A stretch of DNA of 64,000 bases, from assembly GCF_046105845.1 (NCBI RefSeq), contig NZ_CP151004.1, one strand, 5' to 3'. This document shows, piece by piece, positions 7,581 through 13,405 of this stretch. Position 1 is the stretch's first letter, and each line of letters opens with the position of its first letter. This DNA comes from Escherichia coli. Its GTDB lineage: Bacteria > Pseudomonadota > Gammaproteobacteria > Enterobacterales > Enterobacteriaceae. Made by a program: the position numbers and the translations under genes. The notes beneath the pieces are model-generated. The model saw nothing but the letters and a program-made list of their open reading frames with translations. It searched no databases and was not told the DNA's origin.

Positions 7581-7585
7581 ACCAT

Positions 7586-7629
7586 ACGCACAGAATGTGA
7601 TGTCAGCACTCTGTGCGTCTGCTTTTATC
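7586..7629 (+). terminator. eamA terminator: 9-bp stem (acgcacaga / tctgtgcgt) followed by a T-rich tract
   Basis: Hairpin plus gcttttat; the T-tract overlaps the stop codon of the convergent GntR-family gene (7625-7627). Confidence 0.55.
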
Positions 7630-8323
7630 GCGGGAAAAAGTACTTTACCTGGAACTCGAAAATATTGCTGTAAAGTAACGAATAATCCAGCGGAATAGAG
7701 TTACTATCCACAGCCTGGGTCTGAATTTTAAGTATGGGATCCCGTGGGCTGATCCGTAAAATACTGGCGATTTCTGGGGTAGGAAAAGTAGGGGAGAAAG
7801 TTTCAAAGGTGCCAATGATTTTGATCCCGCATTCGTTCTCAATATACGAAAATTTGGATTTTTGCATATGTGCTACGGTTAAATCAGGAAAACGTGCCAC
7901 TGACATCCACGTTTCTTCTAATTGTGCTGCATTATCCTCAATGAATCGCAGTCTCTTTATGTAATAAACCTGCTCACCAGTCACTAAATTCAGCTCAGTC
8001 GCAATAGGGGGAGAAGCATCCTGCACTTCAAATTTCATAATCTGACTTCCTGCCTCCTTGCCGCTTTTATGCGCAATTTCACTGAAGCTGTTCATGTGAT
8101 CAATGTGTGCAACAAAATTCTTTTTTTGAATGTATGTTCCTGAACCATGCTTTCTATGAATAACTCCTTCGCCTTCCAGCAAGGATAATGCCTTACGCAG
8201 GGTATTACGCGAAACATTATAACGAACAGCGAGTTCAGCTTCTGACGGCAACAAATCACCAACATGCCATGAATAGCCATTGATCTCGGATTTAAGTAAG
8301 CGGGCAATCTTTTGAAAAATCAC
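7625..8323 (-). CDS. GntR/HutC-family transcriptional regulator (N-terminal wHTH + UTRA effector domain)
   Basis: 232 aa; the segment LPSEAELAVRYNVSRNTLRKALSLLEGEGVIHRKHGSGTYI is a typical GntR HTH. Divergent from the PTS operon. Absent from K-12 by synteny (from memory). Confidence 0.85.
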   Translation of the reverse strand: MIFQKIARLLKSEINGYSWHVGDLLPSEAELAVRYNVSRNTLRKALSLLEGEGVIHRKHGSGTYIQKKNFVAHIDHMNSFSEIAHKSGKEAGSQIMKFEVQDASPPIATELNLVTGEQVYYIKRLRFIEDNAAQLEETWMSVARFPDLTVAHMQKSKFSYIENECGIKIIGTFETFSPTFPTPEIASILRISPRDPILKIQTQAVDSNSIPLDYSLLYSNIFEFQVKYFFPR

Positions 8324-8437
8324 TTTTGCACCTTTTAAGAGCCATTGAAAACAAGGGGTTGAGTCCTGATTGGTTTATCGTATGGCCGAGTCGTTTAATT
8401 ATTACCCTGATGTTGAACAACTTTATTGCTGTATTAC

Positions 8438-8520
8438 TGTGATCAATGTACCAGGACGTATAGCTACTGCGGGATATGATATTTACACAATGTAATCTGT
8501 TATATACCAGTAAGGGAAAA
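8438..8520. promoter_or_regulatory. Divergent promoter region with a CRP-like site (TGTGAtcaatgTACCA, ~8438-8453) and a near-palindromic HutC-type operator candidate (CTGTTATATACCAG, ~8507-8520) just upstream of the EIIB start
   Basis: Motifs read from sequence. Compared with CRP consensus TGTGA-N6-TCACA and with HutC-family dre-like palindromes (tGGTATAtACCa); both assignments are inference. Confidence 0.3.
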
Positions 8521-8521
8521 T

Positions 8522-8833
8522 ATGAAAAAGATATTGTTAGTTTGCGCTGCGGGCATGTCAACCAGTATGCTGGTTAAACGTATGATTGATCATGCTAACG
8601 CTATTTCACTTGAAGTTAATATTTCCGCATTGGCGATTGCAGAGGCTAAAGGGAAAATTAAAAATAACGAAGTTGACGTTGTTTTACTTGGCCCGCAAGT
8701 TCGCTTTCAGAAACCAGAGATTGAAGCTGTTGCACAGGGGAAAATGCCTGTAGCTGTTATCGAGATGAAAGACTATGGCACCATGAACGGACAGGCAGTT
8801 CTTGAATTTGCGATGAAACTACTGCAAGAGTAA
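8522..8833 (+). CDS. PTS EIIB component, lactose/cellobiose family
   Basis: 103 aa; MKKILLVCAAGMSTSMLVKRM carries the phospho-cysteine motif typical of Lac/Cel-family IIB. Confidence 0.9.
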   Translation: MKKILLVCAAGMSTSMLVKRMIDHANAISLEVNISALAIAEAKGKIKNNEVDVVLLGPQVRFQKPEIEAVAQGKMPVAVIEMKDYGTMNGQAVLEFAMKLLQE

Positions 8834-8947
8834 GAATCTAATATTATTAAACTATTACCTGAACTAACTTTTCACACATCATAAAATGGATATGGCATAC
8901 ATGCTTTATTGGGATGTATAAATATCCAGAACAGCAGGTATAAAAAA

Positions 8948-10158: not shown

Positions 10159-10213
10159 TTTTTTCCTCCAGTGCGATAGCTGGAGGAAATTATTACACTC
10201 TTAAGGATAAGTC

Positions 10214-11885
10214 ATGAATATAAAGACGCTTAACGTCAGCCTTTTGTCTTTTTCTATTATTACAGCATTGTTTCCGTTGAACGCGATGGCAACAAAATTA
10301 ACCATAGAGCAGCGCCTTGAACTGCTTGAAAATGAATTGTCGCAAAATAAACAAGAGCTAAGAGCAACACAGAATGAACTGGGGGTATATAAATCCCGAC
10401 TTTCGACCTTACAAAAAAGTATTACGGAAAATAAATACAAATCAGCCTCACTTGCTGAAATATCAGCGACATCTCCCGTCGCTGATAACATCAAAAATGA
10501 AAACGGTGAACAGAACTCGTCTGCCGCAGCGCATACTATAAATGGATCGCAGCAAGTTGCCGTTATTGAAAGTAAAGGCGACAAAACCACTATCGAAAGC
10601 GTGACCCTGAAAGATATCAGTAAATATATAAAGGATGATATTGGGTTCAGCTATCAGGGGTACTTCCGCTCAGGCTGGGGTACCGGAAATCATGGCTCAC
10701 CACAAACTTATGCAGCGGGTTCTCTGGGACGTTTTGGTAACGAGATGAGCGGTTGGTTTGACTTAACCTTAAATCAGCGTGTTTATAATCAGGACGGTAA
10801 AACGGCAAATGCGGTCGTTACCTATGATGGCAACGTAGGTGAGCAGTATAACGATGCCTGGTTTGGTGACAGTGCCAATGAAAATATCATGCAGTTCAGT
10901 GATATTTATCTGACAACGCGAGGTTTTTTACCCTTCGCGCCAGAGGCAGACTTCTGGGTAGGCAAACATAAACTCCCGCAATATGAGATCCAAATGCTGG
11001 ACTGGAAAACCTTAACCACGGATGTCGCTGCGGGTGTGGGGATTGAAAACTGGGCACTTGGTGTAGGGCTGTTTGATATGTCCTTAAGCCGTGATGATGT
11101 CGATGTTTACTCTCGTGATTTTACGCGTACCAGTCAGATGAATACCAATTCTGTGGATGTTCGTTATCGCAATATCCCGTTATGGGATGATGCAACATTA
11201 TCATTAATGGCTAAATATTCCGCACCAAATAAAACGGATCAACAACAAGATAATGAAAATGACGACAGTTATTTTGAAATGAAAGATAGCTGGATGCTGA
11301 CTTCTGTTTTACGGCAAAACCTGCAACGCGATACGTTTAATGAATTTACGTTACAGGTTGCCAATAATTCCTATGCCAGCAGTTTTGCCAGTTTCTCAGA
11401 TGCCAGTAACACGATGGCGCATGGTCGCTATTACTATGGTGACCATACCAATGGGATCGCCTGGCGTTTAATCTCTCAGGGCGAGATGTATCTTACTGAC
11501 AATATTATTATGGCTAACGCGCTTGTCTATTCTCATGGCGAAGATGTTTATAGTTATGAAAGTGGCGCTCATAGTGATTTTGACAGTATTCGCACCGTAG
11601 TAAGACCGGCCTGGATCTGGAATACATGGAATCAGACGGGGCTTGAATTAGGCTGGTTTAAGCAACAGAACAAAACACAGCAGGGTGTAACACTAAATGA
11701 ATCGGCTTATAAAACGACACTCTGGCATGCATTGAAAGTGGGTGAAAGTATTAGGTTCACGACCAGAAATTCGCTTCTATGGGACGTATATCAATATTCT
11801 GGATAACGAATTATCGAATTTTAAGTTTAATGAGAACAGCAAAGACGAGTTTATGGCCGGCATCCAGGCGGAAGTCTGGTGGTAA
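10214..11885 (+). pseudogene. Carbohydrate-specific outer-membrane porin (LamB/ScrY/BglH family) with a +1 frameshift near the 3' end
   Basis: ORF 10214..11806 (530 aa) has a signal peptide, an N-terminal coiled-coil ([28 protein letters not shown]) and a LamB-like barrel, but stops at ...[13 protein letters not shown]. The +1 frame from about 11757 reads [42 protein letters not shown] (stop 11883-11885), the expected porin C-terminus. Span 10214..11885 is 1672 nt, 1 mod 3. Confidence 0.7.
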
Positions 11886-11909
11886 TCTATTTTAGTTAAG
11901 GAGTTGTGT

Positions 11910-13349
11910 ATGTCAGGATTTAAAAAAGGTTTTTTATGGGGCGGCGCGGTAGCCGCGCATCAGTTGGAAGGTGGCTGGAATGAAGGAGGAAAAGGCATCA
12001 GTATCGCTGATGTGATGACTGCTGGCGCTCACGGTGTGCCGCGTGAAGTGACAGAAGGCGTTATCGACGGACTTAATTATCCCAATCATGAAGCAATTGA
12101 TTTTTATCATCGCTATAAAACAGATATTCAGTTATTTGCCGAGATGGGATTCAAATGCTTTCGAACTTCCATTGCCTGGACACGAATCTTTCCGCAAGGT
12201 GACGAACAGGAGCCGAATGAAGAGGGTTTAAAATTTTATGATGATCTGTTCGATGAATGCCTGAAGCAGGGAATGGAACCTGTGGTGACGCTTTCGCATT
12301 TTGAGATGCCTTATCATCTGGTGACAAAATATGGTGGCTGGCGAAACCGTGAACTGATCGACTTTTTTATCCACTTCGCATCAACGGTCTTCACGCGCTA
12401 TAAAGAAAAAGTAAAGTACTGGATGACGTTTAACGAAATCAATAATCAGGTGAATTTCAGCGAAAGCCTGTGTCCATTTACTAATTCCGGTATCTTGTAT
12501 TCGCCAGAGGAAGATATCAATGAGCGCGAACAAATAATGTACCAGGCGGTACATTACGAGTTAGTTGCCAGTGCCCTGGCGGTACAGACTGGAAAATCGA
12601 TCAATCCTGAATTTAATATCGGCTGCATGATCGCCATGTGCCCCATCTATCCTCTGACGTGTGCACCCAACGATATGATGATGGCCACGAAAGCGATGCA
12701 TCGTCGTTACTGGTTTACTGATGTTCATGCGCGTGGATATTATCCGCAACATATGCTGAATTACTTTGCCAGGAAAGGGTTCAACCTCGATATCACACCA
12801 GAAGATAACGCGATTCTTGCCAGAGGTTGTGTCGACTTTATCGGCTTTAGCTACTACATGTCTTTTACTACGCAATTTTCGCCAGATAACCCGCAACTGG
12901 ATTATGTTGAGCCACGAGATTTGGTCAGCAACCCTTATATCGATACATCCGAATGGGGATGGCAAATTGATCCGGCAGGGCTACGTTATTCACTCAACTG
13001 GTTCTGGGATCATTTCCAGTTGCCGCTGTTTATTGTCGAAAATGGATTTGGTGCGGTTGACCAGAGACAAGTTGACGGCACGGTGAACGATCACTATCGC
13101 ATTGATTACTTTGCTTCCCATATTCGGGAAATGAAAAAAGCCGTAGTCGAAGATGGTGTTGACTTAATTGGCTACACCCCATGGGGCTGTATTGACCTGG
13201 TTTCTGCCGGAACAGGGGAAATGAAAAAGCGCTACGGAATGATTTACGTCGATAAAGACAACGAAGGGAAGGGAACGCTGGAACGGATACGTAAAGCGTC
13301 GTTTTACTGGTATCGGGATCTCATCGCCAACAATGGAGAAAATATTTGA
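11910..13349 (+). CDS. 6-phospho-beta-glucosidase, glycoside hydrolase family 1
   Basis: ORF 11904..13349; GH1 signatures [15 protein letters not shown], acid/base TFNEIN and nucleophile IVENGFG. Start taken at the ATG at 11910 after AAGGAG. Confidence 0.9.
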
Positions 13350-13376
13350 GACTTCAGGAAGATATTACGGAGATAT

Positions 13377-13400
13377 CAGGCTCTGTGATCAGAGCCTGAC
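13377..13400. terminator. Hairpin (tcaggctctg / cagagcctga, 10-bp stem, 4-nt loop) between the convergent GH1 gene and marB
   Basis: Perfect inverted repeat read from sequence; no long T-tract. Coordinates approximate. Confidence 0.5.
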
Positions 13401-13405
13401 AATAA

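Follow-up and report, generated by a model that had tools for sequence, protein, structure and literature searches.

Putative bgc operon with lesions in its permease and porin genes between eamA and marB of an Escherichia coli chromosome

The window analysed here, a stretch of 64,000 nucleotides from Escherichia coli contig NZ_CP151004.1, carries between eamA and marB an accessory block encoding a regulator, a phosphotransferase system (PTS), a porin and a phospho-beta-glucosidase. We hold with considerable confidence that this island is the E. coli bgc locus (bgcR/bgcEFIHA), which has already been described, and that it is caught here in ordinary pseudogenisation private to its lineage. Exactly two of the five structural genes are broken, namely bgcF, encoding the PTS permease (IIC), which has lost 451 bp, and bgcH, encoding the porin, which has lost 2 bp. 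The layout was taken from a six-frame list of open reading frames (ORFs) and from alignment to an intact reference copy, NZ_CP103521 (L001), in which RefSeq annotates a GntR regulator, IIB (103 aa), IIC (440 aa), IIA (103 aa), a carbohydrate porin (557 aa) and a 6-phospho-beta-glucosidase (479 aa). In that alignment the regulator, IIB, IIA and the glycoside hydrolase family 1 (GH1) enzyme of the window are full length with 0–3 amino acid differences, which bears out an earlier reading made from the DNA alone (hereafter the sequence-only reading), where these four had been called intact and only IIC and the porin broken.

The locus is identified as bgc because its gene content, gene order and strain distribution match. 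According to the portion of PMC3585215 that cites Neelakanta 2009, bgc is a five-gene operon for cellobiose, arbutin and salicin, which includes IIB, IIC, IIA and the phospho-beta-glucosidase BgcA and has a GntR-type positive regulator, BgcR. The island likewise holds genes for IIB, IIC, IIA, a porin and a phospho-beta-glucosidase, with a GntR-type regulator divergent from them. The fifth bgc gene is reportedly a porin, BgcH, in the description by Neelakanta, Sankar and Schnetz of 2009 in Appl Environ Microbiol 75:2284, where bgc is also said to be prevalent in septicemic and uropathogenic strains. The distribution found here is of this kind, with six intact genes between marB and eamA of CFT073, an intact island in UTI89, the island porin in Nissle 1917 and an empty site in K-12. 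CFT073 genes c1955–c1960 appear in PMC2831201 as a cluster of six, named “PTS system, cellobiose specific”, that K-12 and O157:H7 lack, and bgc is counted among four cryptic beta-glucoside operons (PMC4488073).

The two lesions and their order

Base-by-base alignment to the intact reference shows that the IIC gene lacks 451 bp between window positions 9328 and 9329. This takes out residues 128–278 of 440, including the conserved GIHG stretch, and the window no longer encodes a complete IIC polypeptide. The sequence-only reading was right that the central third of the permease is lost, although the loss is not a clean in-frame one, as 451 bp also shift the frame and leave the two fragments on overlapping ORFs in different frames (8909/8948–9424 and 9292–9819). 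The C-terminal remnant, residues 279–440, shows zero differences from the reference. Microhomology at the junction amounts to 1 bp, and a repeat-mediated deletion is ruled out on that account. The event would instead be a very recent illegitimate deletion, which took the permease core and the reading frame together. Judged from the sequence, it is expected to abolish transport, in which case the pathway would stop at uptake, no matter how intact the other genes are.

The porin lesion is a run of four T shortened to TT. The protein is native through residue 513 of 557 and then runs into foreign residues, hence the window lacks a complete barrel with its C-terminal aromatic end, the last 44 residues being out of frame. 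A frameshift displacing the C-terminus had been noted by the sequence-only reading; its nature is corrected here to a 2-bp deletion. A 2-bp slip in the T4 run would have cut the final 44 residues along with the aromatic end, and a truncated porin without its terminal strands and aromatic C-terminus is unlikely to assemble into a barrel. Phase variation at the T-run was considered and ruled out, as intact alleles have four T and TT occurs in none of the 473 complete-genome records matching the site.

Could the genes be intact in the organism, and both lesions be artefacts of sequencing or assembly? The porin lesion sits in a short homopolymer, and neither lesion occurs in the 5,426 complete E. 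coli genomes searched: a 50-nt probe across the IIC junction matched none of them, and the 473 records matched by a 50-nt probe across the porin site all span 52 nt (two extra T), none being exact. We nevertheless regard an artefact as very improbable. Assembly error across the two sites, a check that the sequence-only reading had called for, was addressed in a wider assembly collection, where the exact 530-aa porin product is called on five other contigs, including three from different read sets (ERR13115083, SRR12605517 and SRR28309099), and the exact 158-aa IIC fragment on two. The IIC deletion is repeated in a Logan assembly of SRR28309099 (L006), where 12,477 bp, with both lesions among them, match the window at 100% identity. 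Recurrence in independent assemblies shows that the lesions are not assembly errors; furthermore, base-calling errors do not produce a cleanly joined loss of 451 bp, and four T are too few for the homopolymer miscalls typically seen across platforms. The 175-aa C-terminal IIC ORF returned no exact product in the collection, where gene callers chose another start, and an exact-product look-up of the regulator, GH1 and 105-aa IIA sequences as entered found none there.

The same assemblies order the two events. The contig from ERR13115083 (L004) is 100% identical to the window over 13.1 kb, and that from SRR12605517 (L005) differs by one base in 8.5 kb (99.99%); both possess the porin frameshift and keep the 451 bp of IIC. 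The porin therefore broke first and the IIC deletion came later. As the two forms differ by no further substitution in 13 kb, the IIC deletion must be very recent. The porin frameshift marks a small clone, and the IIC deletion arose within that clone.

Decay of the locus in other strains

Damage to the island is not confined to this lineage. We surveyed an even-step sample of 60 rows of matches to the intact island, corresponding to ~57 island-bearing genomes, and found large lesions in ~5 of them, four of which were inspected. In the urine isolate 22AR0118 (NZ_CM132257.1, L013) the island has been hit three times independently: IIC is interrupted by the insertion sequence IS1, GH1 by IS66, and the porin is frameshifted. 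A second strain has IS5 between IIB and IIC together with a frameshifted porin. In another sampled strain a ~3-kb deletion fuses a regulator remnant to the porin, and another has a C-terminally truncated porin. Besides these four, L002 has IS1 in the porin. Eleven evenly spaced genomes without large lesions comprised eight fully intact copies, two IIC pseudogenes (one with an internal stop, one with a frameshift) and one copy with a GH1 gene 13 codons shorter. Judging by this small sample, roughly one in four genomes with the island may have one lesion or more. Since bgc lesions are common in other strains, the decay seen here is not exceptional. L013 and L014 share a 1,673-bp frameshifted porin and a common IIA allele, suggesting a frameshift shared by their lineage.

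A genome-wide decay like that of Shigella is rejected for the region covered by the window, where ~38 flanking genes have no frame-disrupting indel relative to SCU-102, the nearest complete genome, which is without the island. We propose that the operon is dead or dying through relaxed selection on a system reported as cryptic under laboratory conditions; the regulator, IIB, IIA and hydrolase would then remain intact only for want of elapsed time.

An adaptive inactivation, in which loss of the BgcH channel and then of the PTS was selected owing to entry of phage, colicins or toxic compounds or to costly expression, seems improbable to us. It draws on the uneven placing of the lesions, as ~5 kb of bgc coding sequence holds both and the flanking genes, over ~40 kb, hold none (P ~0.01 under a uniform rate, a rough hand estimate), on the porin being the first to break in this lineage, and on porin damage in five of the eight other lesion-bearing strains inspected. 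The porin makes up about one third of the structural coding length, however, which places that count near expectation, and IIC and GH1 are also struck repeatedly. Moreover, the operon is described as cryptic (PMC4488073), which predicts neutral decay, and among the 11 evenly sampled copies free of large lesions, eight are fully intact. We give as little credence to a species-wide version, in which bgc may be actively purged across E. coli, independent lineages preferentially losing BgcH before the PTS, as an idle sugar porin would be a liability through envelope stress or by letting in phage, colicins or antibiotics.

Our preferred account, that this is the described bgc locus undergoing ordinary decay, has several points weighing against it. 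The equation with bgc relies on gene content, strain distribution and a secondary citation and not on a published sequence or map position; in the literature consulted, no map position or gene names are stated for bgc beyond secondary citations. A further article mentioning eamA and marB (PMC11237723) proved irrelevant. The loss of function is deduced from the nature of the lesions, whereas the lesions themselves, their order, the homologies and the distribution are observed. The present data are compatible with neutral decay and with selected loss alike. Finally, SRR28309099 may be the read set of the window's own isolate, in which case it excludes an assembler artefact but does not represent an independent isolate.

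For annotation, the locus is best labelled bgcR, bgcE-F'-I-H'-A, with bgcF and bgcH as pseudogenes, and the strain is predicted to be unable to use the bgc route for cellobiose, arbutin and salicin. The lesions can serve as clone-level markers, the porin frameshift for a small lineage and the IIC deletion for a sub-clone. As a pair they provide a clean, dated instance of stepwise decay in a cryptic accessory operon, which matters little beyond annotation. A species-wide tally of bgc lesions could separate neutral from selected loss of cryptic sugar operons, a modest population-genetics question.

Insertion site, distribution and origin

The block occupies window positions 7571–13403 and measures 5,833 bp here and 6,286 bp in its intact form. 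Comparison with an empty site (L003) shows that it replaces 38 bp of the eamA–marB site. The sequence-only reading had placed it at 7581–13405, abutting both flanking genes; the placement between eamA and marB stands, and the edges move, with the left junction (7570/7571) falling within the final eamA codons, ~10 bp from the start given earlier. The C-terminus of EamA reads ..KVRG* with the island (window 7561–7580) and ..KVGS* at the empty site (L003 1461–1480).

A megablast search with window 6600–14500 found the full block in 2,496 of 5,426 complete E. coli genomes, always chromosomal and at the same site. The flanks are found in essentially all of these genomes, and in the remainder without the block eamA adjoins marB (e.g. 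L003). The sequence-only reading held that the ~5.8 kb block is missing from K-12, and direct inspection of MG1655 agrees, as marB (1619989–1620207) and eamA (1620238–1621137) lie there 30 bp apart with no such block between them. Five island matches sit on plasmid-class records. The 42,027-bp record NZ_CP141086.1 (H119; strain KE48) carries the whole island at 21432–27708; it may be a piece of the chromosome wrongly classed, or the island may really have passed to a plasmid.

The island has a G+C content of 0.35–0.47, compared with ~0.48–0.52 in its flanks. It lacks the tRNA target, integrase and flanking direct repeats of a classical integrase-borne island, as already remarked by the sequence-only reading: no tRNA was detected in window 1–20000, no integrase-like ORF in the ORF list of the window, and no direct or otherwise meaningful repeats flanking the island. 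An Rfam search of 6400–14800 gave no RNA family match at E <= 0.1.

Orthologues of the porin with 75–83% identity occur in Citrobacter, Salmonella enterica (mostly subsp. salamae), Enterobacter and Kluyvera. In C. koseri (L008 4916–11139) they belong to a six-gene cassette of matching order, and in S. enterica subsp. salamae (L009/L010 4955–11142) to a six-gene cassette of unchanged order at an unrelated site, with 68–94% amino acid identity per protein across the two species. The low G+C and the unrelated sites that the cassette occupies in these two species point to a compact, horizontally moving module that inserts without mobility genes of its own. The C. koseri cassette adjoins a sulfate-transporter-like ABC cluster, and that of S. 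salamae is flanked by a serine acetyltransferase gene on one side and a SpoU methylase/lactate-utilisation cluster on the other; no mobility genes were seen at either place. Kluyvera georgiana has a variant (L011/L012 5266–10531) with the GntR regulator, IIB, IIC and a 557-aa porin (75% identical), without IIA or GH1, in which the porin is followed by a hydrolase resembling HAD/sucrose-6-phosphate phosphatases.

Within E. coli the island copies are 97.1–100% identical, i.e. they diverge by up to ~3%, and this divergence at a single site would be consistent with the block having been acquired once, early on, and later lost or replaced allelically. The block might alternatively be ancestral to E. 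coli and have been precisely deleted in K-12-like strains, which we consider possible but doubtful. A constant site in 2,496 genomes, copy divergence comparable to that of the core genome and the lack of mobility genes or target duplications would all suit an ancestral block; yet its G+C lies below that of the flanks, the six-gene cassette recurs in unrelated contexts in Citrobacter and Salmonella, and SCU-102, the closest genome by its flanks, is without the island. The most economical combined view is one early acquisition, after which the block was lost or its alleles replaced by homologous recombination of the flanks.

Elsewhere in the window, positions 14000–38000 reach at most 98.7% identity over 24 kb to any of the 5,426 complete genomes, with SCU-102, PCN033 and strain 042 among the nearest, hence the lineage is unrepresented among complete RefSeq genomes. 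Window 42154–43301 does not align to SCU-102, whose corresponding segment (L028 41052–41762) consists of a truncated hipA and the remnant of an ISNCY transposase; in the window a 459-aa ORF at 41851–43230, after hipB, looks like an intact hipA. A 1,822-aa ORF (35962–41430) corresponds to the “ECSE_1600 family autotransporter” of related genomes. Furthermore, ydeI is annotated as frameshifted in SCU-102 (L028 8016–8409), from which the window differs by 1 bp at 3461, and L006 has an intact 130-aa BOF-domain gene at the ydeI position.

Gene products and comparison with known systems

Table 1. Layout of the putative bgc island and its flanking genes in the window
Feature	Position	Strand	Remarks
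eamA (O-acetylserine/cysteine exporter)	6681..7580	+	left flank
Inverted repeat	7579..7625		19-nt arms, 84% complementary; between convergent eamA and bgcR; candidate bidirectional terminator
bgcR, GntR/HutC-type regulator	7625..8323	-	232 aa, intact; GntR helix-turn-helix and UTRA effector domain
Divergent control region bgcR/bgcE	8324..8521
bgcE, PTS IIB (lactose/cellobiose family)	8522..8833	+	103 aa, intact; Cys of MKKILLVCAAG kept
bgcF', N-terminal IIC fragment	8948..9424	+	native for 127 residues (to 9328); 31 more, out of frame, before the stop
451-bp deletion junction in bgcF	9328..9329	+
bgcF', C-terminal IIC remnant	9331..9819	+	residues 279-440, off the start frame
bgcI, PTS IIA (lactose/cellobiose family)	9847..10158	+	103 aa, intact
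bgcH', LamB-family porin	10214..11806	+	N-terminal Sugarporin_N extension; 530-aa ORF, native to residue 513 (11752), then 17 out-of-frame residues
Porin 2-bp loss site	11751..11752	+	TTTT in intact alleles, TT here
Displaced porin C-terminus	11753..11885	+	last 44 residues, ending ..AEVWW, out of frame (47-aa ORF)
bgcA, GH1 6-phospho-beta-glucosidase	11910..13349	+	479 aa, intact; NEI (175), ENG (377)
marB	13406..13624	-	right flank

Pfam domains follow in the order GntR+UTRA, PTS_IIB, PTS_EIIC, PTS_IIA, Sugarporin_N+LamB and Glyco_hydro_1 (see Table 1 for coordinates). The regulator combines an N-terminal GntR winged helix (PF00392) with a C-terminal UTRA domain (PF07702), the architecture of the HutC subfamily of the GntR family; its NCBIfam matches, to HutC, PhnF and TreR-type models, all stay under the equivalog cut-offs. 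An intact IIC orthologue scores 338 bits on TIGR00410 (cut-off 236), a lactose/cellobiose family model, and IIC can be aligned to 3QNQ, the solved structure of B. cereus ChbC (E = 4e-58). IIB and IIA match lactose/cellobiose/chitobiose NCBIfam models below the curated cut-offs. The GH1 protein reaches 1032 bits on the 6-phospho-beta-glucosidase model NF007154 (cut-off 624) and keeps both catalytic Glu motifs, in line with the enzyme named by the sequence-only reading. The porin, described there as LamB/BglH-like, indeed contains the LamB barrel (PF02264) and Sugarporin_N (PF11471), an architecture like that of BglH and ScrY; it is not a maltoporin proper, scoring 205 bits on NF006860 against a cut-off of 394, and it has no match among Protein Data Bank (PDB) sequences at E <= 1e-3.

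The control region contains a block, ACTGTGATCAATGTACCA at ~8433–8450, which is kept in E. coli, Citrobacter, Salmonella and Kluyvera with an invariant TGTGA core (consensus ACTGTGAyCAATGTA), and which is a candidate site for CRP or for the regulator. A near-palindrome, CTGTTATATACCAG, lies at ~8497–8510, directly upstream of the bgcE ribosome-binding site. A promoter and terminator scan of the island gave no excess over shuffled sequences, and no promoter is claimed.

For substrates and regulation we draw on the bgc literature and on the families above. In an intact operon, the BgcH porin would admit the sugar through the outer membrane, BgcF (IIC) with BgcE (IIB) and BgcI (IIA) would import and phosphorylate it, and BgcA would hydrolyse the resulting 6-phospho-beta-glucoside, while BgcR and probably CRP would control the divergent promoter. 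The published bgc operon has identical gene content and order and is of the cellobiose/aryl-beta-glucoside type; the copy in the window differs from it in the bgcF deletion and the bgcH frameshift, and should be non-functional.

Two K-12 systems are related to different parts of the cassette. The chb operon (chbBCARFG), like bgc cryptic for cellobiose, has a PTS of the same family with separate IIB, IIC and IIA (identity to ChbB 44%, ChbC 37% and ChbA 48%), but it is served by an AraC-type regulator (ChbR), a GH4 enzyme (ChbF) and a deacetylase (ChbG) and has no porin, whereas bgc has a GntR regulator, a GH1 enzyme and a porin of its own. The bgl operon (bglGFBH) resembles bgc in its other half, as the island porin shares 53% identity with K-12 BglH along almost all of its length and the GH1 protein 50% with BglB. 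Unlike bgc, bgl relies on BglF, a fused EIIBCA protein from the glucose/beta-glucoside family, and on the antiterminator BglG. BgcF has no detectable similarity to BglF: neither BgcE, BgcF nor BgcI gave a BLASTP match to it at E <= 1e-3, and their NCBIfam matches are to lactose/cellobiose models only. The sequence-only reading had spoken of a beta-glucoside-type PTS, which holds for the cassette as a beta-glucoside/cellobiose system but not for the PTS parts, as these are Chb-like and not of the BglF type. The bgl operon is itself a cryptic aryl-beta-glucoside system that is decaying in some lineages (PMC2646131). In the cassette as a whole, a PTS of the Chb type is accordingly joined to a porin and a hydrolase of the Bgl type, with a GntR/HutC regulator over them.

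Outside the enterobacteria, gmuBACDREFG of Bacillus subtilis and bgu of S. pneumoniae likewise join a GntR/HutC regulator to a lactose/cellobiose PTS and a phospho-beta-glycosidase (PMC3585215). These Gram-positive systems are without a porin, and GmuR and BguR are repressors, whereas the portion of PMC3585215 dealing with bgc reports BgcR as an activator. A divergent GntR/HutC repressor had been proposed for the island from its sequence; the family and the divergent arrangement are as described, and the regulator is better regarded as the reported activator, which sets bgc apart from gmu and bgu.

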